This document shows positions 6,730 through 23,724 of a stretch of 35,958 nt of DNA, piece by piece. A model generated the notes under the pieces. That model did not search any database, had not been told where the DNA came from, and saw nothing but the letters and a program-made list of their open reading frames with translations. The DNA is from Eubacteriales bacterium (GTDB lineage: Bacteria > Bacillota > Clostridia > Oscillospirales > CAG-272). The stretch covers positions 1 through 35,958 of the forward strand of contig JAZSIJ010000010.1 in assembly GCA_045533755.1 (NCBI GenBank). Reading direction: 5' to 3'. The position numbers were made by a program, and so were the translations under genes. How positions within the stretch are numbered: the stretch's first letter is position 1; the number at the start of each line of letters is the position of its first letter.

Positions 6730-7563
6730 ATGACTTTAAACCAACTTAAATCGGCAGTTTCGGCTCTTCTGTCCGAGGCTGTGACCGAGCGAGACCCAAT
6801 ATTTCTCGGCGCGGCAAACCGCTCTCTCGAAATGCTCTTTCGCGAGCTTCCCTCTCTGAAGCTATTGACGCTTCCCGTAACCAAGACGGGCTCGACGCTT
6901 CTTGCAGAAAAGGTCGAGCACTCGGCAGGAGAGAAAATTTCCTTCAAGCTTTCGGCAGACGCTTATTCCTTTAAGGTCGCAGGCAGAGGAAGATACACCG
7001 TCCGTGACTCCTCGGGCGAGGTGGAAAGAGACTTTGACACTCCCCTCTCTACCCTTCGCGGCTTTATTTCGGGGTGCTCGGGCGAGATAGTCTTTGAGGG
7101 CGATTATCGCTACACGGTATTTGCTCTTACGGTCTTTAACGGCATTGTCGGGCAAAGCCTCGAGGATATTCCCGACGGCTCGGGGGAGAGGGTAGTCGCT
7201 GCCGACGATTATGCCGACGACATTCTCTCGCTTTGCACAGAGGCAAAAGACGCTTCGGGAAGAATAGTTTCGGGGGCAAAGGTCGTGGGTAGGAGCGTTG
7301 TATTCCCGAAGGATTATTCGGGGCTTGTTACGCTCTCTTACGAAAGGCGTCCCGCACCGATTACCGAAAGCTCGGTATTCATTGACGCCGAGCCCGACGC
7401 AGCCTCCGTCCTTCCACTTCTCACAGCATATTTTCTCACGCTTGAGGAGGACTGTGACAGAGCCGGAGAATACCTCTCTCTTGCGCGCGACGGGATAAAG
7501 AGCCTTCTCGCGCGCAGAGCGCGCACCGACCTTGAATATACCGACGTTACGGGGTGGGCGTGA
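6730..7563 (+). CDS. Putative head-tail adaptor (tail tubular A / P22 gp4-like)
   Basis: MTLNQLK...LL N-terminus and Y.RRP..IT...D.....LPLL.AY C-terminal pattern; follows capsid gene; AAGGAG RBS before ATG 6730. Confidence 0.55.
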   Translation: MTLNQLKSAVSALLSEAVTERDPIFLGAANRSLEMLFRELPSLKLLTLPVTKTGSTLLAEKVEHSAGEKISFKLSADAYSFKVAGRGRYTVRDSSGEVERDFDTPLSTLRGFISGCSGEIVFEGDYRYTVFALTVFNGIVGQSLEDIPDGSGERVVAADDYADDILSLCTEAKDASGRIVSGAKVVGRSVVFPKDYSGLVTLSYERRPAPITESSVFIDAEPDAASVLPLLTAYFLTLEEDCDRAGEYLSLARDGIKSLLARRARTDLEYTDVTGWA

Positions 7564-10238
7564 TGGGAATAAACAGAAGAGCTCCGACGAGCAAAAAAAG
7601 CGTATATACGCGCTCCTATCCGGGTTTTCTCGGAGTTGACCTCTCGGGGTCAAGCGCCTCGGCGGGAAAACGCTGTGCCTACGCCGAAAATATGTATCGC
7701 GACTACGAGGCAGGAGATACGGGAGCGCTTGAGAGCATTCCCGGCTTCAGAAAAATATTTTCGACAAGCAACAAAATAAACGGTCTCTTTCTTCAGAGAA
7801 CAGCCGACGGCGAGACCTACGTCATTTTGCAGGACGGAGTGGAGGTAAAGCGCTTCAATCCCACAGCGCCCGAGGAGATGACCCCTCTCACGATAACTCC
7901 CAGCATCAACGACAAAGAAAGCTTTTGCTTTAGCTACGGAGACTATCTCTTTCTCTCCAACGTCCCAAGCCTATACAGAATAAGCGATAGCGGCGAGATG
8001 CGCTTGGTGCAGGACACCTTAGCTAGCGCCCCCTACGTTCCGACCGTATATAAAAACGGCAGGGCATTTGAGCAAAGGAATCTTCTGACCTCGCGCTTTA
8101 TCGAGAGCGCAGAGCTTCTGCCCACCTCCGACTACGCCTACGGAACTCCGGGTCTGTTCTACAAGGTTACGAGCGTCGAGCGCCGCGAGTGCGCCGTCAC
8201 CGGCATATCCGACACGACCGCCGACGTATTCATTCCCGGACGCGCCCTGCTCGGAGAGGAATACTACACCGTTACCGAGATAGACAACTCCGCCTTTTCG
8301 GGCAACACGTCGGTAGCCTCCGTAACGATAGCCGATACCGTAAAAAGAATAGGAAACGGCGCATTCTACGCCTGCTCGGCGCTGCGGCGCGTCGCCTCGG
8401 GTGACGGTCTTCTCGAAATCGGCGACCTCGCATTTGCCGAATCGGGTCTTGGCGAAATCTATATCCCCGCAGGCTTCCTCCGCTTCGGAGATTCGGCTCT
8501 TCCCACAAACTGCAGAATTCTTTACGAGCTCGGACAGGCAGGCTTCGAGAGCATCGAGAACGCCCCCGCCCTTTCGGTTTCCTACGGAAGCCAAAACAAA
8601 TCTATAACCCTCGGCTTTAAGCTTAAAACGCCCTCACATACTATTCATTCGGTGAAAATTAACGGCTTGACGCAAAAATACACCACTCTGAGCGACGCTG
8701 ACGGTTGCGTAAGCGAAATAATAATCTCGGTAGCCGACAAGAGCAATCTGACGGGCAGCGTATTGAAGGTGCTGGCAAGCATGCGGGATTACAGCGCAGC
8801 TCCAAGCGACGAGGGCGTTGACTTTACGCTTTTTACAAAAAACAAGCTGATACAATTCCCCTCGGTGATAAGAAACTGCACCGCGGCAAAAACGATAGAC
8901 GGCAGAGTATTCGCCTGGGGACACCCACAGTTTCCCTCGGTGCTCTTCTACTCTAAGCGGGGAGCAGATTATAACTCGGCGCTCTATTTCGGCACGCTTG
9001 ACTATATTAACGAGGGCGACGGAGACAAAAGAATCGTTTCGGTGCTCGGGCTTCCCGACGGAATAGCGGTATTTACCTCTGCCAAGGACAACGCCGAATC
9101 CATCTACTTCCACACTCCCGAGGACTCGGGGGGACTGCGCGACAGGCTCTATCCCGTCTCCGAAATACATATCGGCGACGGAGCGGTGGGAGAATCGCTG
9201 AATTTTGGCGATGACCCCGTGTTCGTATCCGAAAAGGGTCTTCTCGGTATCGGTGAAAATCCGCTCTATCTTTCCAGAAGCGTCACCCAGCGCTCCTCCT
9301 CGGTGTCTCCCGCTCTCCTAGGTGAGAAGCTTTCGGCATCAAGGCTTGCGCTGTGGCGAGGATACCTCGTGCTCTCGGTCGGCGGAAAAATGTATCTTGC
9401 CGATTCGCGAAAGACCTACGAGAGTGTATTCGGAAAGGAGTACGAATGGTTTATCCTTAACGGAATAGGGACTTACAAAAACGACGAGCGCGTATACCGC
9501 TATGCGACGAGGGCTGACGACGGCTACGAGCTATCCGATACGCCCGACGCGGCTGCGGAGGGGACGGTTTACAGCGAGGACAGGGGAAGCGGGCTCGTCT
9601 ACTTCGTCTACGACGGAGATAAAAAAATTCAGGTTTATCCTACCGAGGAAATGACGGGCGGAGACTTCTATCCCGCCGAGAGACTTCTCTCCTTTGACGG
9701 ACTTCTTATGTTCTCGACGGGGTGCGGAGACCTTTGCGTATTCAATAGCGATATGCGCGGCGTACCGCCTCTGCGGATTGCATCGGCTCCGGACTTTGAC
9801 GCCGAGGAATATTCCCGGCTTTTCGGCAACCGAATACACTCGGATTTCTACGACTTTGCAGGTCACGCGGCAAGATACGCCTTGGAAACGATACCCGACG
9901 ACTGCGGGCTTCCGCATATGGCGAAGAGGACTCTCTCCGGCTCTCTGGTTATCAAGCTCAAGTGCTTTATCGGCTCAAGGGTTACCCTGAGGGCATCATA
10001 CGGAGGCGACGGCTATTTCCTTCTCGGAGAGTACGACGCGGGTGTTACCGACCTGTCCTCGCTATCATTTGACACGCTCTCCTTCACCGCCTCGGAGGAC
10101 ACCGTAATAATGCCCGACGAGAGACGCGAGAGCTGGAACGAGAAGAGCATTTCTCTCTTGTCGGAGGACTTCCGCTCACCTGTTGGTGTCTACTCTGTAA
10201 GCTATCTCTACCGAGTGACCGACAGACCTAAATCATAA
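7563..10238 (+). CDS. Tail nozzle/head stabilisation protein (P22 gp10 / T7 gp12-like) with internal BspA-type LRR module
   Basis: N-terminal GFLGVDLS...ENM...G.L...PG motif, propeller-like segments (DGRVFAWG, PVFVSEKGL), and IGNGAFYAC..L / IGDLAFAES.L repeats. Confidence 0.65.
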   Translation: MGINRRAPTSKKSVYTRSYPGFLGVDLSGSSASAGKRCAYAENMYRDYEAGDTGALESIPGFRKIFSTSNKINGLFLQRTADGETYVILQDGVEVKRFNPTAPEEMTPLTITPSINDKESFCFSYGDYLFLSNVPSLYRISDSGEMRLVQDTLASAPYVPTVYKNGRAFEQRNLLTSRFIESAELLPTSDYAYGTPGLFYKVTSVERRECAVTGISDTTADVFIPGRALLGEEYYTVTEIDNSAFSGNTSVASVTIADTVKRIGNGAFYACSALRRVASGDGLLEIGDLAFAESGLGEIYIPAGFLRFGDSALPTNCRILYELGQAGFESIENAPALSVSYGSQNKSITLGFKLKTPSHTIHSVKINGLTQKYTTLSDADGCVSEIIISVADKSNLTGSVLKVLASMRDYSAAPSDEGVDFTLFTKNKLIQFPSVIRNCTAAKTIDGRVFAWGHPQFPSVLFYSKRGADYNSALYFGTLDYINEGDGDKRIVSVLGLPDGIAVFTSAKDNAESIYFHTPEDSGGLRDRLYPVSEIHIGDGAVGESLNFGDDPVFVSEKGLLGIGENPLYLSRSVTQRSSSVSPALLGEKLSASRLALWRGYLVLSVGGKMYLADSRKTYESVFGKEYEWFILNGIGTYKNDERVYRYATRADDGYELSDTPDAAAEGTVYSEDRGSGLVYFVYDGDKKIQVYPTEEMTGGDFYPAERLLSFDGLLMFSTGCGDLCVFNSDMRGVPPLRIASAPDFDAEEYSRLFGNRIHSDFYDFAGHAARYALETIPDDCGLPHMAKRTLSGSLVIKLKCFIGSRVTLRASYGGDGYFLLGEYDAGVTDLSSLSFDTLSFTASEDTVIMPDERRESWNEKSISLLSEDFRSPVGVYSVSYLYRVTDRPKS

Positions 10239-12889: not shown

Positions 12890-15283
12890 ATGGTATACGA
12901 CGAGAAGATTTCTGCTATCCGAATAAGCATACCCGAGCTTGTAAGCATAGCAAGACGCGGCGTATCCCCCTCCGTTCCCAGAGATGAGGACGAGCCAAAG
13001 GACAAGGCGCCCTCTAAAATCGAGCTTCGCGCGCTCGGAATTTCGCTCACCGAAAGGAAGATAGAGCACTCAACAGAGGCAGACGGCGACAGACTTCTGC
13101 TCTCAGGCAGGGTATCAATTGACAGAGACGGCGGTATCGTGATAGTCAGGGAGTCCGACAGAATAAGCGGCAAGCCCTCGCGCGAGCTTTCCGAAAAGAC
13201 GAGAGGCGAGGGCTTTATATACGCTTATCTTATATCGCGCGAGGACGCGCTCCCGCAAATAAAACTAACTATAGTTTACATCAACAGTATTACAGGAGAA
13301 AAAATCGAGACCTCAGAGGAGATAAGCTTTGCCACAGCCGAGCGCTTTTTTGGCAAATGCATGGCAACCGTGTCGATTTATTCGCGTCCCGAGCGTGAGC
13401 GTGTCAGTCTGAGACTTCCCACTATGCGCTCGGTTAAGTTCCCATACGAATCGGTACGCGAGGGACAGCGCGATTTCGCGAGACGCGCATACAAGGCAAT
13501 CTGCCGAGGCGGTTCACTATTCGCCCTCGCACCGACGGGCACGGGTAAAACCGTAGCGGCGCTCTTCCCTGCAGTGAGAGCGATGGGCGAGGGAAAATGC
13601 AGCAAGGTGTTCTACCTCACGCCAAAAACCACTACCGCTATGGCGGCGCGTGAATGCATTGAGCTTCTCTGTCGGTCGGGCGCTGAAATCAGAGCTACCG
13701 TGCTTTCGGCAAAGGAGCGCGTATGTAAAAACGGTCTACGCTGCCGCGACGGAAGGGACGGCTGTGAGAACGCCTGCGAAAACAGGCTGCGTGATGCAGT
13801 TCTCGAGCTCTATTCTATGAATATTACGGTCGTAACGGCGGAAAACGTGGGACCCGTGTCGAGAAAATACACCGTTTGCCCCTACGAGCTTGCCCTGACC
13901 TATGCCGAGCTTTGCGACGTCGTTATATGCGATTTCAACTATCTTTTCGACCCGAGAGTATATATTCGCCGCTTCTTTGACGAGGGGGGCGACTTTGCCT
14001 TTCTCATCGACGAGGCGCACAATCTTCCCGACAGGGCAAGAGAAATGTTCTCGGCTGAAATATCGGCAGAGGAGCTTGCCTCGCCCTCGGAATCCGAGCT
14101 TCTAGGAGAGCTCTCGCGCGTAAAAAGTCAGTCGGTTGAGGCTAGCCATGCCGTCTTTTCGCTTCTCTACCCATTCGTCAAGGACGAAATTCGCCTGACC
14201 GCCGAGGGCGAGGTCGGCGCAACTCACCTCTCCGAGCTTCCCTCCGGGCTTTACGGCATATTCGAGAGACTTCTCGCCGTCTGCGAGGAGGAGATAACCG
14301 ACACGACGAGGGCGCGCGACGAGGAGAAAAAGCCTCGCCTGCGGCTTCTGCGCGATTACTATTACAAGGTAAAGCGCGTCTACGACACGATGCTTGCCTT
14401 TGACTCGGACTATCAGCTCTTTATATTCTACGAGCACGCCGAGCTGCGCTTCAAGCTCTTCTCTATTGACACCGGCAGGCGCATATCCGAGGCTATATCA
14501 AAGGGAGGCTCTGCCGTCTTCTTCTCTGCGACGCTCTCCCCCCTTGATTACTACCGTGCAGTCCTCGGGGGCGACAGAGCCTCGGAGATTATGGAAGCCG
14601 ATTCGCCCTTTGCACCCGAGCAGCTAGCCGTCGCGGTGATGGACAGGATAAGCACGAGATACTCCGAGCGCGAGGACACTCTCACAGCGGTATGCCGCGC
14701 CATAGCGGCAACTCTGTCGGCAAAGCGCGGAAATTATATAGTTTTCTCGCCTTCCTTTGCCTACTCCGAGGCACTTGCGGGTATATTTAAGTCGAAATAT
14801 CCTCACCTGAAGGCTCTCGTTCAAGGAAAAAACATGTCGGCAAGAGAAAAAGCCGAGTTCCTCGCCGCTTTCCATGAAAAAAACGGCTCCTATCTCGTTG
14901 CATTCTGCGTTATGGGCGGCATCTTTGCCGAGGGAATTGACCTTGTCGGCGAGTCGCTTATCGGCGCTGTCGTCGTCGGAATAGGCCTGCCGCAGCTCTC
15001 CTACGAGCGCGAGGCTATCGCCGCATATTTTGACGAGCGATATGAAAAGGGCAAGGAGTTTGCCTATATCTACCCCGGCATGAACCGAGTTCTTCAGGCG
15101 GCAGGGCGTGTCATCAGACGCGAGGACGACCGGGGCGTTATAGTCCTCATAGACGACCGCTTCGACGACCCGATATACAAAAAAAGCCTCCCTAAGCTCT
15201 GGCGCGGAATAAAATTCATATCCGACCCGAAGGAGCTCAAGACGGCTCTCGAGGACTTCTGGCGCGAGACGAAGTCCGACTAG
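12890..15283 (+). CDS. ATP-dependent DNA helicase, DinG/Rad3 (XPD) family with Fe-S cluster
   Basis: Q motif REGQ, Walker A APTGTGKT, Cys cluster C..C..CPYE, LIDEAHN, FSATL, FAEGID, QAAGRVIR. Confidence 0.92.
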   Translation: MVYDEKISAIRISIPELVSIARRGVSPSVPRDEDEPKDKAPSKIELRALGISLTERKIEHSTEADGDRLLLSGRVSIDRDGGIVIVRESDRISGKPSRELSEKTRGEGFIYAYLISREDALPQIKLTIVYINSITGEKIETSEEISFATAERFFGKCMATVSIYSRPERERVSLRLPTMRSVKFPYESVREGQRDFARRAYKAICRGGSLFALAPTGTGKTVAALFPAVRAMGEGKCSKVFYLTPKTTTAMAARECIELLCRSGAEIRATVLSAKERVCKNGLRCRDGRDGCENACENRLRDAVLELYSMNITVVTAENVGPVSRKYTVCPYELALTYAELCDVVICDFNYLFDPRVYIRRFFDEGGDFAFLIDEAHNLPDRAREMFSAEISAEELASPSESELLGELSRVKSQSVEASHAVFSLLYPFVKDEIRLTAEGEVGATHLSELPSGLYGIFERLLAVCEEEITDTTRARDEEKKPRLRLLRDYYYKVKRVYDTMLAFDSDYQLFIFYEHAELRFKLFSIDTGRRISEAISKGGSAVFFSATLSPLDYYRAVLGGDRASEIMEADSPFAPEQLAVAVMDRISTRYSEREDTLTAVCRAIAATLSAKRGNYIVFSPSFAYSEALAGIFKSKYPHLKALVQGKNMSAREKAEFLAAFHEKNGSYLVAFCVMGGIFAEGIDLVGESLIGAVVVGIGLPQLSYEREAIAAYFDERYEKGKEFAYIYPGMNRVLQAAGRVIRREDDRGVIVLIDDRFDDPIYKKSLPKLWRGIKFISDPKELKTALEDFWRETKSD

Positions 15284-16010: not shown

Positions 16011-16049
16011 ATAGAAAAATGGACACCGTGATTGGTGTCCATTTTCTAT
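16011..16049. terminator. Bidirectional terminator hairpin (original tRNA-Glu downstream terminator)
   Basis: AAAATGGACACC-GTGATT-GGTGTCCATTTT. Confidence 0.75.
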
Positions 16050-17518
16050 GGTGAAGCAAACGCTTCAATATCCGAACTGCCTTCTATTGCCTCAAGCTCG
16101 TCGCTTGTGGGAACTGTTACAGGCTCATTTTTGAAATTAAAGGTTATTACGAGCTTGTCGTCGTAAAGTAACACACATTTCACAAGACTGTCAATCAAAC
16201 GCTCCTTATTTGTCTCAATTGTTAAGTCAAGTTTACGGAATTTGTCCAAAGCAAATAAAATTTGTTCTTTTGTTAGCTTGGGAGTGCTTGTCTGCTCTTT
16301 CAAAATATTGAGCTGAATTTGCTCTTCCTCGGCTTCAAGCTCCTCGAGCTTTGCCTTGGTTGAACGAGTGATAATTCCTGCCGCAATAGCCTTCATTACG
16401 TTGTCAATGGATTTACGGACTTCCTTAAGCTGAGCCTCAAGAAGCGGTATAACCTTGTTGTCTTCGTCAAGCAATGCCACTATCTCATCGGCAATCTTAT
16501 CAAGAGCTTCGTCATCAAAAAGAACCTTGATAACCTTATTCAGCACAAGCTCCTCAATCCATTCCTTACGAACGGCTTTTTTATCGCACTCGTGCCTCTT
16601 TGCGCTAGCACATTTGTAGTAGCGGTAGATATTGCCGTTTTTCTTTTGTGCGGAATCTCCGACCATCATACTGTGGCACTTTCCGCAGAACAGCTTGGTA
16701 GTAAGCACGTACTTTTCTTCTGCCTTGTTCTTGGCTGATGCATGCTTGTTCTGTGCCATTCGCCTTTCGACTACCTTGAATGTGTCTTCTGACACTATAG
16801 CGGGTACACCGCCCGGAATTTCAATACCGTTATAGTGATACACACCCATATAAGATTTGTTACCAAGCATTCGGTTGAGCGTGCCATGATTAAAGGCTTT
16901 GCCCTTCTGCGTTTTAAGTCCTCTTGCATTTAGACTGTGCACTATTTCCGCAATAGACTCTCCGTGAGCATAACGCTCAAAGATTTCAGCCACTATGGGA
17001 GCTTTTAAAGGGTCAATTTGGAAGTGCTTCTCCTCGTCAACGGTGTAACCGTATGGAAGACCATTTCCACCGTTAAAACGACATTTTAAGGCATTCTCGG
17101 TGAGACCCCGTGTTACCTTTTCTGCAAGATCAGCGGAATAGTATTCCGCCATACCCTCAAGCACGGATTCAAGAATTATGCCCTCAGCACCTTCAGAGAT
17201 TGCTTCGGTTGCGGAAATGACACGAACGTCGTTCTTCTTCAAAGCAGCCTTATATTTTGCACTGTCGTAGCGGTTACGAGAAAATCGGTCGAGCTTCCAA
17301 ACTATGACTACGTCAAAGGTTTTCTTCGCACTGTCGCGAATCATTCGCTGAAATTCAGGACGGTTATCGGTCTTGGCAGAATATGCCCTGTCAATGTAAT
17401 GCCCGACTATCGTAATGCCATTCTTCTCGGCAAAAGCAGTGTTCTCACGAATCTGCCCCTCAATCGACTCCTCGCGCTGATTGTCCGAGGAATATCTCGC
17501 ATAAATTACACCCGTCAT
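16046..17518 (-). CDS. Large serine recombinase (resolvase, recombinase and zinc-ribbon domains)
   Basis: YARYSS catalytic motif, DRFSRN, PYGY, CGKC...YYKC...C zinc ribbon, coiled coil. Confidence 0.95.
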   Translation of the reverse strand: MTGVIYARYSSDNQREESIEGQIRENTAFAEKNGITIVGHYIDRAYSAKTDNRPEFQRMIRDSAKKTFDVVIVWKLDRFSRNRYDSAKYKAALKKNDVRVISATEAISEGAEGIILESVLEGMAEYYSADLAEKVTRGLTENALKCRFNGGNGLPYGYTVDEEKHFQIDPLKAPIVAEIFERYAHGESIAEIVHSLNARGLKTQKGKAFNHGTLNRMLGNKSYMGVYHYNGIEIPGGVPAIVSEDTFKVVERRMAQNKHASAKNKAEEKYVLTTKLFCGKCHSMMVGDSAQKKNGNIYRYYKCASAKRHECDKKAVRKEWIEELVLNKVIKVLFDDEALDKIADEIVALLDEDNKVIPLLEAQLKEVRKSIDNVMKAIAAGIITRSTKAKLEELEAEEEQIQLNILKEQTSTPKLTKEQILFALDKFRKLDLTIETNKERLIDSLVKCVLLYDDKLVITFNFKNEPVTVPTSDELEAIEGSSDIEAFASP

Positions 17519-17552
17519 TTACTCTTACCCCTTCCCTAAAATTTGTGCTTTG

Positions 17553-17581
17553 ATTGTAGCATAAACTTCTCTGATATTCAA
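17553..17581 (-). promoter_or_regulatory. Sigma-A promoter for the recombinase
   Basis: Minus strand TTGAAT, 17 bp, TGcTACAAT. Confidence 0.6.
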
Positions 17582-17746
17582 GTCTTTTTAACTACTTATT
17601 TTGCCAAAACACCTCGATTTTAGCAAGGTGTGCACGTCCAGGTACATCTCATTACGATATTGCCACTAAAACTTGAAAAATCACTATGCCTAAATCAATG
17701 AAAAAGCGCTTGAGAGTTGCAAAAAAATTACAGCACTAAACAAAGA

Positions 17747-17769
17747 AAAGCCTCGAGATCCGAGGCTTT
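17747..17769. terminator. Terminator hairpin
   Basis: AAAGCCTCG-AGATC-CGAGGCTTT with T/A tracts on both sides. Confidence 0.65.
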
Positions 17770-17773
17770 GTTT

Positions 17774-18190
17774 TTAGCTAAATATGGGTCGCAAAAAATC
17801 CACAGCATTACGCTCAACCATCAGAAATATCTTATTTGGTTTCGGTACGTTGTTGTGGGATTTTATTAAACCATCCAAACCAACGATAACGCCTGGATTG
17901 CCACGTATAACAACCACAGTTATACAATCTTTGTCACAAATCGGTTTTAACACATATTTCTTTTCTCGTGCTGGTCTCGACATGCCTCCAAAGAGGTAAA
18001 ATTGCTCCCAGATTATATCACCGCTTTCTGTGCAGTGAATATGAGTGGCTTTTGTAGCTCTTTTTCTGCTAACGTAGAGATTCGCAGCAATATCATTGAA
18101 CTTTAAATTGTACAAATCAAAATAATCCAACCTCTGTTTAGGAGCTTTTCCTATAAACTTAGATAGCTTTCTCGAATTAACAAAGCACAT
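17774..18190 (-). CDS. Hypothetical protein
   Basis: TAATG-coupled to the upstream XRE gene; ends at a terminator. Confidence 0.55.
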   Translation of the reverse strand: MCFVNSRKLSKFIGKAPKQRLDYFDLYNLKFNDIAANLYVSRKRATKATHIHCTESGDIIWEQFYLFGGMSRPAREKKYVLKPICDKDCITVVVIRGNPGVIVGLDGLIKSHNNVPKPNKIFLMVERNAVDFLRPIFS

Positions 18191-19317
18191 TATTTTACCC
18201 TCTTGTTAAAGTCGTCAATATCGCGGAGCAGCTTTTTGTAACGTTCGTCATCACGTAACGATGCAAAACATTCCATTGACATTATTTCTTCGAGATTTTG
18301 GAATCGATCGCCCAAGCGATTGCTAACGTTAGAAAGAAACGGAGAGTCTATTTTGAAGCCGGAAGCTATAAGCTCCTCTTTATCCTTGATGTCATAGTTG
18401 ATTGCTTTCTCAAGAGAGTCAAGCGCAAGCTCTGAGTTGCCAAACTCCATCGCTTTTTCCGCAAGCAGAACGTAGATATCACCGCCTTCAACGTGGTGGA
18501 AGGGCATCTTCGTCTCGCCTTCAAATATAACGTCGAGCATTCTTATCAGACGTTGATATATATCCATCGCCTTCTCAGGCTCTTCTGTCAGATCATAAGC
18601 CTTGCCGAGACTGACCGCACCGTATAGAAGGGCGTGGATCAAATTCATTATATAAAACTGCCAGCTTGTGATCTCGGTTTTGTAATCCTTCTGCCAATGT
18701 GCGTGAATGGAGTACATTTTATGGATATTGAAATCTGCCCTTGACGGAAATTTTTCAGCTTGCCTTCTTGCTTCTTCAAATTTGCCGTTAGCACAGTGGA
18801 GCATAAGCATTATCATTCTGGCGCGGAGTATGCGGTTTACATTATCATCATAGGAGAATATAGTATTTGCATGCTTTTCGCAAGACTCGTAAAGAGCCTT
18901 TGCATTCTTCTCGTCATAAATGGAATTTTGCGGATATGCGAGCGAAATTTCAAGCTCCATACAGTTTATAAGGAGTGTAAAGTTGTTGGGGTAGATCTCT
19001 AATCCCTCAAGCAGCACATTGTACTTGTCGGTCAAGCACTCGATGGTCAAAGGAAATGTGAGTTTGCTTTGCGCTCTCCTCATTATTTCCGAAATATCCT
19101 CGTTTTTCTTTATATCTCCGGTTCCGAGAATTGTGTCCGTACTAACACCAAATACATGCGCCAATGGAACGATTTGCGAAAGGTCAGGCATTCCGCTTTC
19201 GTTCTCCCATTTAGAAATAGCTTGTGCGGTAACACCAATTTTCTCTGCAAGCTCTTCTTGAGTAAGACCTCGGCTTTTACGAAGTTCTTTTATCGTTTTT
19301 CCAATTGAATGTTGCAT
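18190..19317 (-). CDS. XRE-family HTH regulator with TPR-like C-terminal domain
   Basis: IKELRKSRGLTQEELAEKIGVTAQAISKWE HTH; helical repeats; GAGGAG RBS before ATG 19317. Confidence 0.88.
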   Translation of the reverse strand: MQHSIGKTIKELRKSRGLTQEELAEKIGVTAQAISKWENESGMPDLSQIVPLAHVFGVSTDTILGTGDIKKNEDISEIMRRAQSKLTFPLTIECLTDKYNVLLEGLEIYPNNFTLLINCMELEISLAYPQNSIYDEKNAKALYESCEKHANTIFSYDDNVNRILRARMIMLMLHCANGKFEEARRQAEKFPSRADFNIHKMYSIHAHWQKDYKTEITSWQFYIMNLIHALLYGAVSLGKAYDLTEEPEKAMDIYQRLIRMLDVIFEGETKMPFHHVEGGDIYVLLAEKAMEFGNSELALDSLEKAINYDIKDKEELIASGFKIDSPFLSNVSNRLGDRFQNLEEIMSMECFASLRDDERYKKLLRDIDDFNKRVK

Positions 19318-19459
19318 ACAGCTCCTCCTCTGTTTCGTTGCAATAAGTATATCAAAAAACGGTGTGTTTTTGAAGATACTAATTCGCAACACAAACTCAA
19401 CGTTCCGTTGTATTAATTATAGCATCAATTCTTCAAAACTTCAAGAGGCTGGCTTAATA

Positions 19460-20740: not shown

Positions 20741-21103
20741 ATGAAAAAGAAGCTTAAAACTACGGAAATCTCCTTCAATGAAGCAGATCCCACGACCACG
20801 ATTTATACATATAATACGAATCTGAAGAAGCGGCTTTTAGAGTTTTCCGAAGAATGTCCGGATTTATGTAAGGTTATCTTGAAAGACGAGGACGGTTGCA
20901 TAGGATTTGAGATAAACAAGGATAATTTCACTTTTAGGTGCATGAAGCCGGCATCTGAAGAAAAGCGTGAAAAAGCCAGGGAGCAAATGAATAAGCTGAT
21001 TGGCAAGACAACCGAGGCGAACGCAACGATAAGTGAGCCGAAAACAGAACTAATAACCAATACAAAAAAGACGCTTTGGGAGCAAAAATACGGCAAAAAT
21101 TAG
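20741..21103 (+). CDS. Hypothetical protein typical of clostridial mobile elements
   Basis: AAGGAG RBS; T.I.FNEA....IYTYN..LKKRL pattern. Confidence 0.7.
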   Translation: MKKKLKTTEISFNEADPTTTIYTYNTNLKKRLLEFSEECPDLCKVILKDEDGCIGFEINKDNFTFRCMKPASEEKREKAREQMNKLIGKTTEANATISEPKTELITNTKKTLWEQKYGKN

Positions 21104-21316
21104 CCAAAAAGTTGGGTCGATTTTTAAGCAGCCGGCTATAAAATTGTCAATAGGTTTTTGAGAAATTTTTCTTAAGCCGAATGAATAATATGCAAATTTT
21201 AAAACATCAGTCAAGGGTAAAACGAGCGTGCTTCGCGCGCCCTTGACAGCTGCTTCAAAATTCGCTGAAAAAGCAATTAAGGGCTTAAGAAAAATTATGA
21301 AGTGCAAACTTCCAAA

Positions 21317-22498
21317 TTACTGTTCGTCAGGATTGTAATAAGGCTTGTTGTCACGAAGAACTGCAAAGATAATGTTGGTCATTTTCCTTGTAACGTGCCC
21401 AATTGCATTCATATAAGGTTTGCCCTCGGCACGTTTCTTTTGGAAGAAAGCTTTCATGTGAGAATCAAATGTAGCGGCGGCGGTAGAAGCTTGCCAAAGT
21501 GCACGTCGCAAATAAGGAGAACCACGTTTGGACATGTGGTTATGTGTTCCAACGAATTCACCAGACTGAGTTACTGTAGGATCAATCCCGGCGAAAGCGG
21601 CAAGCTTGGCTGCAGATTCAAATCTGGATATGTCTCCAATCTCACTGAATATGGTAGCACCCAGCGTTGGTCCAATGCCAGGGATAGTGGTTATGTATGT
21701 GTTAAAATGAGAAAATAGTTCTGCAATCTTGGAATCTATCTCAGCGATCTGTTGTTCTGAGAAGCGAATATGTTCCATGTGTTGCTTAATTAAAATTCCC
21801 ATTGTGTTATGTTCAAGAATAATACCGAAAGAGTTTTGAGCAAGAGCTTTTATCTCTTCAGCTTTAGCTGTTCCAAAACGCTTGCGGCTAGGTGTCTCTA
21901 TGAGCTGAGTAAGCTTTTCAGTGTCGATGTTAAGTATCTCATCCGGGGTGGATGCAGCACGTAAAAGTTCTGAGGACGTAAGACCGAATACATCCGTGAA
22001 AATTGTTTCGTATTCAGGAAATGCTTGATCTAACAAGGCAATTACTTTGTGTTTTAGGTCAGCGGTCATATCCACAATGAAGGTTCGTGCACGGCAAAGC
22101 TCTCTTAACTCGTAAACGACAGATGGAGGCATACCGCCTTCGGTATATCTGCCGAAACGAATAACCTCTGCTATTATGAACGAGTCATGCTCATCGCTCT
22201 TTACTTGGCGTATATACATTCCGCGCAGAGCGTTAGACTGTATTGGATTAAGAACGTGAACTGGATACCCCTCACGCTTTAGCGCGGAATAGAGAGCAAG
22301 CCAGTAGTGGCTGGTAGATTCCATACCGATGATGAAATCTGAAGGGGTGTTGCTAACAGATTGTAAAATCCCTTTGAGTTTAGAAAATCCGGTAGCATCA
22401 TTTTTGAAGTTGAATGCTTTCTTTACAATGGTGCCTTCACGGTCAATAATAATTGCTTCATGACTGCGCTTGGCAATGTCTACACCAACAATAAACAT
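21317..22498 (-). CDS. IS110-family transposase (DEDD RuvC-like bridge recombinase)
   Basis: GVDIAK, GMESTSHYW, KSDEHDS, IPGIG, QSG and SKRG..YLR motifs; AAGGAAGG RBS before ATG 22498. Confidence 0.95.
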   Translation of the reverse strand: MFIVGVDIAKRSHEAIIIDREGTIVKKAFNFKNDATGFSKLKGILQSVSNTPSDFIIGMESTSHYWLALYSALKREGYPVHVLNPIQSNALRGMYIRQVKSDEHDSFIIAEVIRFGRYTEGGMPPSVVYELRELCRARTFIVDMTADLKHKVIALLDQAFPEYETIFTDVFGLTSSELLRAASTPDEILNIDTEKLTQLIETPSRKRFGTAKAEEIKALAQNSFGIILEHNTMGILIKQHMEHIRFSEQQIAEIDSKIAELFSHFNTYITTIPGIGPTLGATIFSEIGDISRFESAAKLAAFAGIDPTVTQSGEFVGTHNHMSKRGSPYLRRALWQASTAAATFDSHMKAFFQKKRAEGKPYMNAIGHVTRKMTNIIFAVLRDNKPYYNPDEQ

Positions 22499-22539
22499 AA
22501 AGGTATTCCTTCCTTTCATGATTCGGACAGTATCCTCAC

Positions 22540-22860
22540 ATCCTTATGGATCACAACCTGCTGGGAAATTAGAAGAAAGCATAGAGCTTCGACATCCGGC
22601 CAATAAATGAACTCCCATAAGGCAGAGGCCTCAAACTGCTTAAAGTGAACAGATAGTCACAAGGATAATAGAAGAGCAACCTCTGTCCGTTATGGTTATT
22701 ATATCATATCCGAAAAGAGTTCGGAAGAGATATCTAAAAAATGCAGAAAGACGATCAAACTGCTTAAAGAAAAACTGTGCTTTCACGGAGAATAGAAGGT
22801 CAGATCTTTCTGCATATATATTCGGAAATTATGCAGTTGTAACAACAAATTATTTACGGT
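22540..22860 (-). ncRNA. Predicted IS110 bridge RNA region with two target-binding loops and one donor-binding loop
   Basis: Three stem-enclosed internal loops whose segments match the reconstructed target (two loops) and the donor junction (one loop). Confidence 0.75.
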
Positions 22861-23128
22861 TTATATTATAGCAGGAGAAAGGGTTGGCGTCATAATGCGC
22901 CCACCCGCTTCACATCGGACGGCAGTGCCGACCGAATTAACGAGAGTTAGAGAGATTTCACGAGATTTTGCCAGGTGACGCTGTGGGTAATACTGTAGGT
23001 CAAAAAACGCTATTTTTAAAAAACAGCGCCACAAGTAACGCTTTGACATCGAATTTTCGAGATCTTTCCAAAGAGTACACCAACGCTTTGAAAAACGCTT
23101 TGTAGGTCAACTAGGAAAGGATTAGAGA

Positions 23129-23431
23129 ATGTACTTAAAAAAGATATGGAACAGAATAGTAGAGGTTCTGTCTGACAAATCCTCGGGAATTCAACCCGAG
23201 TTCAGACAGCAGCTTGCGAACATAGCAAAACGCATCGAGGAATTACTAAAGGACAAGCACGGGGAGTGCGAAATTCCCGATGATTTGATAAAGGAAATCG
23301 CAAGGTGTCTTGCACCCGATATTGTAGCATTCTTCGAAACCGAAGAAGCAAAACGAGAGTTTGAAGAGTGGAAACTCGAACAAGAGAAAAAACTAGCTGA
23401 AAAAGCGAAAAACGAGGCGATGCCCAAGTGA
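23129..23431 (+). CDS. Hypothetical helical protein at the element end
   Basis: AAGGA RBS; terminator CGAGGCGATGC...GCATCGCCTCG-T tract overlaps the stop. Confidence 0.65.
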   Translation: MYLKKIWNRIVEVLSDKSSGIQPEFRQQLANIAKRIEELLKDKHGECEIPDDLIKEIARCLAPDIVAFFETEEAKREFEEWKLEQEKKLAEKAKNEAMPK

Positions 23432-23532
23432 GCATCGCCTCGCGCTTTTTATGTGTAATTAGAGATAAAATCGAAGTAAAAAACAAATCCGAACCACTTA
23501 TCTGTTACGAAGTAGTTCGGATATGTTTTGTT

Positions 23533-23607
23533 TGGTGACCCGTACGGGAATCGAACCCATGTTACAGCCGTGAAAGGGCCGTGTCTTAACCTCTTGACCA
23601 ACGGGCC
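23533..23607 (-). tRNA. tRNA-Glu (TTC)
   Basis: GGCCCGTTGGTCAAGAGGTTAAGACACGGCCCTTTCACGGCTGTAACATGGGTTCGATTCCCGTACGGGTCACCA cloverleaf with encoded CCA. Confidence 0.97.
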
Positions 23608-23648: not shown

Positions 23649-23724
23649 GGTAGCGGATGTCGGATTTGAACCAACGACCTACCGGGTATGAACCGGGCGC
23701 TCTAGCCAGCTGAGCTAATCCGCC
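23648..23724 (-). tRNA. tRNA-Met (CAT), elongator type
   Basis: GGCGGATTAGCTCAGCTGGCTAGAGCGCCCGGTTCATACCCGGTAGGTCGTTGGTTCAAATCCGACATCCGCTACCA. Confidence 0.95.

Follow-up and report, generated by a model that had tools for sequence, protein, structure and literature searches.

The window analysed here, a 35,958-nucleotide stretch of an Eubacteriales genome (contig JAZSIJ010000010.1), carries on its minus strand an insertion sequence (IS) of the IS110 family, a group whose recombinases are guided by a bridge RNA. The long non-coding left end of this element holds three internal-loop modules: an upstream target-binding loop (TBL-a), a second target-binding loop (TBL-b) and a donor-binding loop (DBL).

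The element and its left-end modules

The same 5 nt, CTGCT (AGCAG on the plus strand), stand at both ends of the element (21127-21131 and 22870-22874). In a public gut metagenome run (X3), two contigs pass straight from 21126 to 22870 and so lack exactly 1743 bases, 5 letters at the joint being ambiguous; these contigs are uninterrupted copies of the target, which fixes the element at 21130-22872 with its CT core within the shared CTGCT. On the minus strand the upstream junction reads ...CTTTCTC-CT-GCTATAATAT... and the downstream junction ...TATAGCCGG-CT-GCTTAAAAAT..., and homologues share the junction motifs GCTATAATAT and TTGACA-N-GCCGGCT. CT-GCT is thus found at both junctions, and the insertion is precise and site-specific, with a short core and no long terminal inverted repeats, as expected of the IS110 group. 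The recombinase matches DEDD_Tnp_IS110 (PF01548, 3.4e-41) and Transposase_20 (PF02371, 1.3e-27) and, among PDB sequences, the transposases of ISCro4 (9t56, 4.3e-21) and IS621 (8wt6, 4.6e-19); its sequence points to the DEDD (RuvC-like) N-terminal and Tnp C-terminal domains of IS110-group enzymes. The non-coding left end is long (353 nt from the left boundary to the ATG), and the right end is short, extending ~187 nt beyond the stop codon. The element is an active-looking IS110-group insertion sequence. The assembly to which the window belongs (162 contigs, 81% complete) yielded no further copy, and with a single copy insertion sites are not comparable within the genome.

The RNA strand is the minus strand, upstream of the recombinase open reading frame, and along it the left end runs from the leader through TBL-a (22815-22741), a U6 tract, a small hairpin, TGATATAAT, TBL-b (22689-22623) and the DBL (22622-22542) to a ribosome-binding site and the ATG. 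The features are:

21130-22872, minus: complete element of the IS110 family, 1743 bp with the CT core counted once
22865-22873, minus: left-end extended -10, TGCTATAAT, with T as the second core base
22816-22864, minus: 5' leader, with a stem-loop UAGAUAUU...AAUAUCUA in most homologues (read from the alignment)
22741-22815, minus: TBL-a, the extra upstream target-binding loop, recognised by its stem, covariation and guide-flank matches
22735-22740, minus: U6 tract behind TBL-a, present in the window
22707-22733, minus: small hairpin UUCCGAA...UUCGGA, just upstream of the internal -10
22698-22706, minus: putative internal extended -10, TGATATAAT (P_int)
22689-22683, minus: 5' arm, CGGACAG, of a long-range helix enclosing TBL-b and the DBL
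22623-22689, minus: TBL-b, the canonical target-binding loop, recognised by covarying stems, a match to the TBL-a model and guide-flank matches
22542-22622, minus: DBL, with GCCGG as left donor guide and AGCAG as right donor guide
22524-22530, minus: 3' arm, CUGUCCG, of the long-range helix
21317-22519, minus: recombinase gene, 400 aa, intact open reading frame
21145-21150, minus: TTGACA -35 hexamer of the right end, 17 nt from the left-end TATAAT if the ends are joined

The two target loops share TCAAACTGCTTAAAG (at 22631 and 22755) and AATAGAAG (at 22667 and 22791), both contained in a 44-nt direct repeat that is 73% identical between its copies (22631-22674 and 22755-22798, spacing 124). 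TBL-a is closed by an 11-nt, 100% complementary stem (22741-51/22805-15), TBL-b by CAGAGG/CCTCTG (22623-28/22680-85) and the DBL by an 8-nt stem that is again 100% complementary (22542-49/22615-22). In TBL-a the left guide is UUCUCC (22792-22787) and the right guide UUUAAGCAG (22768-22760); in TBL-b they are UUAUCC (22668-22663) and, once more, UUUAAGCAG (22644-22636). The donor guides fit the joined ends of the element, GCCGG-CT from the right and CT-GCT from the left, so that by sequence the third module reads as a bridge-RNA donor loop; in one homologous locus (L005) donor guide (GACCGG) and right end (AACCGG) are both altered to ACCGG. The repeats, the three closing stems, the U6 tract and TGATATAAT all lie where the first-pass annotation had placed them, its assignment of a shared right guide, two differing left guides and a third loop fitting the donor junction is borne out, and so is its overall description of an IS110-type element whose bridge-RNA region has two paralogous target loops and one donor loop.

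The structure of TBL-a is supported by comparison with its homologues. RNAalifold, given TBL-a from 16 non-redundant two-loop loci, predicted two stems, one outer and one inner, together with an apical hairpin, and compensatory changes in 9 of 14 pairs; in a hand-extended structure such changes affect 12 of 19 pairs, a figure biased towards structure since the alignment was fitted to the model. In this extended structure 87.7% of cells are paired as against 44-55% in slid controls, and none of 500 shuffles attained the observed covariation values. Covariation across homologues, proposed earlier as a check, therefore came out in favour of the upstream loop. Its unpaired segments, CUAUUCUCC and UUUUCUUNAAGCAGUUUG, are almost invariant. 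A covariance model built from TBL-a alone matches TBL-b of the window over its full length (22613-22699, 42.7 bits, E 2.8e-7) and also finds TBL-b in most two-loop loci and in one-loop relatives; it gave no match to the DBL. Since the model finds TBL-b and not the DBL, TBL-a is a structural paralogue of the target loop. TBL-b and the DBL are in turn enclosed by the long-range helix CGGACA/UGUCCG, in which 3 of the 6 pairs show compensatory changes (20 sequences). Rfam gave no match in 22520-22872 at E up to 1, and none in 15 homologous loci at E up to 0.1. An IS621-type bridge RNA has one target loop and one donor loop; as modelled, the left end described here has two target-loop modules.

The layout is not confined to the window. 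Homologues came from species genomes (12 loci), metagenomes (24 loci) and a genome search (L039, the single further left end found by DNA search in 401 genomes of the order), and 25 of these loci were aligned with the window at the left end. Both target loops are present in 19 of the 26 rows, with recombinases 72-96% identical to the window's, a recurrence in other genomes and metagenomes that places the two-loop layout beyond chance. Six rows have TBL-b and the DBL only: the place of TBL-a is taken by other sequence in L009/L022 and by a short hairpin in L015/L035, and is deleted in L019/L020. In the one remaining row, L030, TBL-a is replaced by a GC-rich insert of ~240 nt (L030:469-706) with loop-like remnants on both sides; the insert carries a long inverted repeat, GCGCGGATTTTGGGCGC... 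/ ...GCGCCCAAAATCCGCGC. Read separately, L021, L032, L033 and L039 have one loop each, L032 and L033 being the nearest outgroups (55-58% recombinase identity). The searched viral contigs held no relative and the searched plasmids distant IS110 genes only. On a quick recombinase tree, whose base is unresolved, the two-loop elements fall into three clades separated by one-loop lineages; one gain followed by losses and several gains are not separable on it, and the frameshifted L011, L031 and L034 sit on very long branches. TBL-a is missing or replaced in three lineages and the nearest outgroups are one-loop, which makes it a dispensable, derived addition, and the simplest reading is that TBL-b and the DBL are ancestral and that TBL-a was gained, then lost a few times. 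The three frameshifted loci are decayed, with 12, 21 and 6 stops respectively when their recombinase frames are read through; most of the left end of L011 is replaced by unrelated sequence, and L031 retains both loops intact despite its decayed recombinase.

Guides, flanks and the insertion target

By the published rule, a loop has the sequence of the top strand on its 5' side and the complement of that strand on its 3' side, and each side includes the core (PMC11208160); guides and flanks were compared on this basis. For the left side, the 6-nt left guide was set against the 6 nt ending in the first core base. After removal of L018, L020 and L029 (each with a sister locus at the same flank) and of L004 and L033 (no flank), 17 two-loop and 9 one-loop insertions were tested as independent. 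In the window, the right guide UUUAAGCAG of both loops pairs 9/9 with the right flank CTGCTTAAA, and the left guides read UUCUCCG (TBL-a) and UUAUCCU (TBL-b) against a flank TTCTCCT; over 6 nt, TBL-a fits 6/6 and TBL-b 5/6. Both loops, as sequences, therefore follow the target-loop rule of bridge RNAs, left flank in the same sense and right flank as complement.

Across the two-loop insertions the flank equals the TBL-a guide in 11 of 17 (the window, L005, L014, L006, L007, L008, L010, L016, L023, L027 and L031) and the TBL-b guide in 4 (L002, L003, L017 and L025). A match to either guide, in 15/17, compares with 9.8 expected when flanks are shuffled (p 0.0006), and a match to the TBL-b left guide alone with 1.5 expected (p 0.009); related elements are treated as independent in these tests, so the p-values are too optimistic. 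The right side behaves likewise, contiguous flank matches summing to 89 for TBL-a (81 expected, p 0.003) and to 67 for TBL-b (62 expected, p 0.02), with TBL-a right guides such as UCAAGCAG at CTGCTTGA (L016, L023, L031) and GAGCAG at CTGCTC (L026). One-loop relatives have a flank identical to their TBL-b guide in 6 of 9 insertions (1.4 expected, p 0.0004), including at TTAACC (L039) and TATCTT (L032).

The two left-flank classes expected by the first-pass annotation do exist, TTCTCC and TTATCC, and elements with the window's guide pair are found at both. This pair (TBL-a UUCUC(C/A), TBL-b UUAUCC) occurs in five loci, once at TTCTCC (the window) and four times at TTATCC (L002, L003, L017 and L025). 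In addition, a contig of run X2 spans 21207-22935 (1729 window bases) with 18 differing letters and 5 gaps; at least 10 of the differences are in the flank, among them a G>T at 22877 that gives a TTTATCC flank in a different copy of the target. By sequence, damage to a loop tracks the flank that is used: the TBL-a of L003, an element at the TBL-b allele, carries a core mismatch, and the TBL-b of L005/L014, which are inserted at the TBL-a allele, reads AAGCUG. Both target loops thus carry signs of selection, as had been suggested: conserved guide segments, covarying stems and guide-flank matches in homologues.

The target is itself a conserved module. In the window its two halves are:

22873-22960, minus: target left half, with hairpin CGGTCGGCACTGCCGTCCGA, then TGTGAA, a GC hairpin and CTTTCTC-CT
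21100-21131, minus: target right half, CT-GCTTAAAAATCGACCCAAC

The module was seen in 25 flanks and has one layout in all loci: iteron-like repeats come first, then the hairpin CGGTCGGCAYTGCCGTCCGA, TGTGA, a GC hairpin that varies and shows compensatory changes, and finally CTTTMTC-CT-GCTTNNNNTCGACC. A pattern derived for the target gave 30 matches in 28 of the 401 genomes of the order (4 for the reversed-pattern control), and 21 of the 30 have the full module, nearly all of them uninterrupted and some of them orthologous copies: 14 carry TTTCTC, 6 TTTATC and 1 TTTGTC. Uninterrupted modules were found at 20 further places in these genomes, and both alleles, TTCTCC and TTATCC, are common among empty targets. 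The window's genome has one occurrence of the module, and the module has no Rfam match. Uninterrupted copies adjoin an RHH gene followed by a MobL relaxase gene (L073, L058, L061), a NikA-like gene with AAA_25 (L062), HTH_36 genes, and tyrosine or serine recombinases. From these neighbours, the target is a conserved non-coding site of small integrative mobilizable elements, and its place upstream of RHH-relaxase operons suggests a possible origin-of-transfer (oriT) region. A likeness of the target to the MOBP-type oriT nic site, YATCCTG|C, prompted this suggestion, for which gene context was examined.

In the window the module spans 22873-23128 and 21100-21129, with other examples among loci L045-L074, and gut-metagenome depth at 22906-22950 is several-fold that of the IS. 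The first ~18 nt of the left end (22854-22872, consensus GCTATAATATCGACCGTA) resemble the right half of the target (21111-21129, GCTTRAAAATCGACCCTG) at ~13/18 positions, so that the left junction nearly regenerates the target; the ATCGACC shared by left end and target is not explained by guides of 5-6 nt. The IS itself probably sits inside an integrated mobile element. At 2-5 kb from it, 16046-19392 encodes a large serine recombinase (Resolvase, Recombinase and Zn_ribbon_recom domains) and a 400-aa Xre-type HTH/TPR protein. Two tRNA genes (23536-23607 and 23651-23724, minus) lie 0.7 kb from the element, and 23404-23551 (plus) has a sub-threshold match to the IS605-orfB-I RNA (33 bits against a gathering score of 94). 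The same contig encodes an 894-aa BspA-type leucine-rich-repeat protein (7554-10238) and a 797-aa XPD/DinG-like helicase (DEAD_2, Helicase_C_2; 12890-15283).

Candidate promoters and the use of two target loops

Two candidate promoters bracket TBL-a. The motif TTGACA (one mismatch allowed)-N7-12-GCCGG-CT is present at the right ends of the window and 29 loci (30 in total; in 4 other rows the TTGACA right-end motif matches off-site), and GCTATAAT is kept in the aligned left ends. With the two ends joined, TTGACA would come to lie 17 nt from TATAAT, a candidate circle-junction promoter by analogy with IS621, in which excision reconstitutes the promoter of the non-coding RNA (PMC11208160). No circle junction of the element was seen in the sequencing-run contigs searched. 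L019 and L025, considered as tandem or circle junctions, were ruled out: their right flanks merely resemble the first 7-14 nt of the left end. In the integrated state the promoter scan proposes a flank-borne ATGACG-17-TATAAT with TG, 10/12 matches. The second candidate is the internal extended -10, of which TGNTATAAT/TGATATACT is found in 26 of 26 aligned left ends, one-loop ones included, and also in L021, L032, L033 and L039. It follows the small hairpin, whose arms co-vary in homologues (read from the alignment with no formal count), and sits 8-12 nt before the helix closing TBL-b and the DBL. We infer from its sequence and position a putative -35-less promoter, whose transcript would begin where the bridge RNA begins; this -35-less TGATATAAT was not among the calls of the promoter scan. 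The internal promoter region (22699-22719) and the left-end junction with its flank (22861-22881) are identical at 15 of 21 positions, a likeness that might go back to a nested or tandem insertion from which the second loop arose, or might just reflect two AT-rich promoters. In RNA run X15, contigs cover most of the element (21107-22755) in four pieces with gaps, and one contig of 237 nt (22519-22755) crosses the internal promoter and the U tract; 22778-22868 has no cover, and contigs of an RNA library show neither transcript starts nor true transcription.

We lean towards the view that the element has a natural dual-target-guide variant of the bridge RNA, with two loops serving the two target alleles. 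The order of parts would be 5' leader, TBL-a, hairpin, internal promoter, the helix-closed unit of TBL-b and DBL, and recombinase gene. TBL-b and the DBL would be the ancestral bridge RNA, with the internal TGATATAAT probably acting as its promoter whether the element is integrated or excised. Of the two candidate promoters, the left-end one, TGCTATAAT, precedes TBL-a and the internal one follows it; the former would acquire a consensus TTGACA -35 only upon joining of the ends, so TBL-a would come mainly from the excised circle, either by itself or as part of a read-through transcript. A synaptic complex of IS621 draws its TBL and its DBL from two different RNA molecules, and recombination in vitro also proceeds when the two loops are supplied as separate RNAs (PMC11208158), so that any TBL-bearing RNA could load the target-side dimer; a recombinase dimer with either TBL might then pair with a DBL-loaded dimer, giving TBL-a/DBL or TBL-b/DBL complexes. 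The right guide is common to both loops (AAGCAG for CT-GCTT) and the left guides differ, UUCUCC versus UUAUCC, which would allow insertion at TTCTC-CT-GCTT and at TTATC-CT-GCTT. Given that TBL-a lies behind an excision-strengthened promoter, its supply would rise when a target must be chosen. The right guide is followed by UU in both TBLs and by G in the DBL; by analogy with IS621, these bases occupy the handshake-guide positions and could pair with donor GG (by wobble) and target C. The most elaborate form of this proposal is a natural multiplexed bridge recombinase with two guides, two specificities and two promoters, an excision-switched TBL-a and a constitutive TBL-b and DBL, attacking both alleles of an oriT-like site; we advance it tentatively, as a possibility to which we give rather less than even credence.

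Several observations weigh against the use of both loops, besides the bias of the 12/19-pair figure and the optimism of the permutation tests noted above. TBL-a is absent or replaced in L009/L022, L015/L035, L019/L020/L021 and L039. Single-sequence folding energies are unremarkable (z -0.5 to -1.9), so that covariation alone carries the structural case. The TBL-a left guide taken by itself is marginal (11/17 against 8.3 expected, p 0.058), a weak test because the common allele makes up most flanks; the informative cases agree, with UUAUCC at TTATCC in L008 and UUGUCC at TTGTCC in L027. Two insertions, L026 and L028, match neither guide exactly, each being one mismatch from TBL-a. The two target alleles differ by a single base, and tolerance of one mismatch by one loop may be an alternative. 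The X2 copy likely has the same loops as the window, going by the differences listed for it. In one clade (L006, L007, L008, L010, L016, L018, L023 and L031) no observed flank is fitted by the TBL-b left guide, which reads UUUUCU, CUUUCU or UUCUCU, and the TBL-b right guide lacks complementarity to the core in L005/L014, L023 and L027; with such unfitted TBL-b guides in several elements, both loops being in use is not general. The stand-alone extra guide RNA proposed in the first-pass annotation did not hold up as a family feature: the U tract is weaker in L002, L003 and L005 and absent from most other two-loop loci, hence confined to the window's subclade, and the consensus terminator scan did not call the TBL-a stem with its U6.

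In the clade just described and the other elements with unfitted TBL-b guides, TBL-a looks like the only fitted guide, which would suit either guide turnover or a division of labour between the loops. Under turnover, one loop takes over recognition and the other drifts, only one working in each element; in the window TBL-a would be the working guide and TBL-b would persist chiefly to partner the DBL structurally within the closed bridge RNA. The clade in which TBL-b fits no flank and TBL-a fits both sides is what turnover would produce, as are core-complement mutations in one loop or the other (TBL-b of L005/L014, L023 and L027; TBL-a of L003) and the better fit of the window's flank to TBL-a. 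We nevertheless consider it unlikely, if still the most serious competitor: L002, L017 and L025 have both loops intact and the window's guide pair, yet sit at the TBL-b allele, as does the near-identical X2 copy, so that the window's TBL-b matches real insertions of its kin, and the guide UUAUCC is kept across the distant clades of L017/L025 and of the window.

If labour were divided instead, an internally promoted TBL-b and DBL would serve excision and a junction-promoted TBL-a would be the insertion guide. Only in the circle does TBL-a stand directly behind a promoter consensus, TBL-b and the DBL begin 8-12 nt past the conserved -35-less extended -10, TBL-b guides drift in several lineages, and excision of IS621 is reported to be independent of target complementarity (bioRxiv 10.64898/2026.08.31.748434). 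However, four to five insertions fit TBL-b and not TBL-a, one-loop relatives insert using TBL-b alone and the promoters are sequence predictions, and we regard this strict partition as improbable.

Still less probable is a decoy or attenuator, whereby the TBL-a hairpin, with or without the U tract, titrates the recombinase or blocks read-through into its gene and guides nothing. The 11-bp stem followed by U6 in the window invites such a role, and the RNA species found in greatest amount in CazIS110-1 is a TBL-only one (bioRxiv 10.1101/2025.10.25.684509), but the U tract is not conserved, and the guide segments, needless for a decoy, are conserved above all other parts and vary in step with the flanks (L008, L027, L026). 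That TBL-a is a non-functional remnant of a duplication or nested insertion we find very hard to credit: the 15/21 likeness of the internal promoter region to the left-end junction would fit, as would the loss of TBL-a in three lineages, but it is kept in 19/26 left ends, down to 72% recombinase identity, with compensatory stem changes and near-invariant guide segments.

Known bridge RNAs and the meaning of a second guide

As in IS621 (Durrant et al. 2024, PMC11208160; Hiraizumi et al. 2024, PMC11208158), the recombinase combines DEDD and Tnp domains and the non-coding RNA lies in the left end; each loop is top-strand-like on its 5' side and complementary on its 3' side, the core is CT, the joined ends form a promoter (here putative) and the TBL precedes the DBL. 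Descriptions of the IS621 RNA give it a 5' stem-loop and a single TBL and DBL, whereas here a second, diverged TBL lies upstream, a conserved internal extended -10 stands between the TBLs, a covarying long-range helix surrounds TBL-b and the DBL, and the left end measures ~350 nt. A target loop separate from its donor loop is not unprecedented: CazIS110-1 makes a TBL-only RNA, and there, as in the seekRNA work cited with it, a separate target loop takes part in transposition (Sun et al., bioRxiv 10.1101/2025.10.25.684509). That RNA is a truncated single TBL with the same guide, whereas TBL-a is a paralogous module in its own right, whose left guide is different. In vitro results with TBL and DBL on split RNAs (PMC11208158, Extended Data Fig. 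6e) likewise indicate that a TBL need not share the RNA of its DBL, as our proposed mechanism requires, but they concern an engineered split of one bridge RNA and the extra guide here is natural.

Duplicated non-coding parts of IS110 elements have also been described as tandem repeats beside IS110 recombinases (bioRxiv 10.64898/2026.08.14.744561); that screen took units of at least 50 bp and at least 95% identity, and the accessible part of the preprint describes no diverged second target loop or second specificity. IS1111-group members at attC sites and Tn21 inverted repeats (cited in PMC11208160) are similarly site-specific for structured sites of mobile elements; they belong to another subgroup, whose RNA lies in the right end, and have other targets. 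Bridge-RNA structures that 'visibly deviate' from IS621 are mentioned, in the part of the preprint available, without detail (bioRxiv 10.64898/2026.10.21.760802). The bridge RNA is described as one TBL plus one DBL (PMC11208160, PMC11208158, PMC13626964, as far as their accessible text goes), and the literature search found no report of a second, diverged target loop, the supplementary files of bridge-RNA papers, which may list extra-loop loci, lying outside it. The design with one TBL and a DBL is thus known, and the version with two target guides is probably unreported.

Tools for programmable genome rearrangement are being developed from bridge recombinases, for which the published model has one target and one donor loop. 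If the dual-guide reading is correct, more than one target guide per donor is tolerated and selected, offering a template for multiplexed or allele-tolerant targeting, and extra target loops, in cis or in trans, are used by a recombinase in nature. The conserved internal promoter (itself putative) and the closing helix suggest how guides might be expressed separately in the integrated and excised states, which bears on how excision and insertion are balanced. It would also mean that a mobile element tracks variation in its target, another mobile element, by adding a guide.

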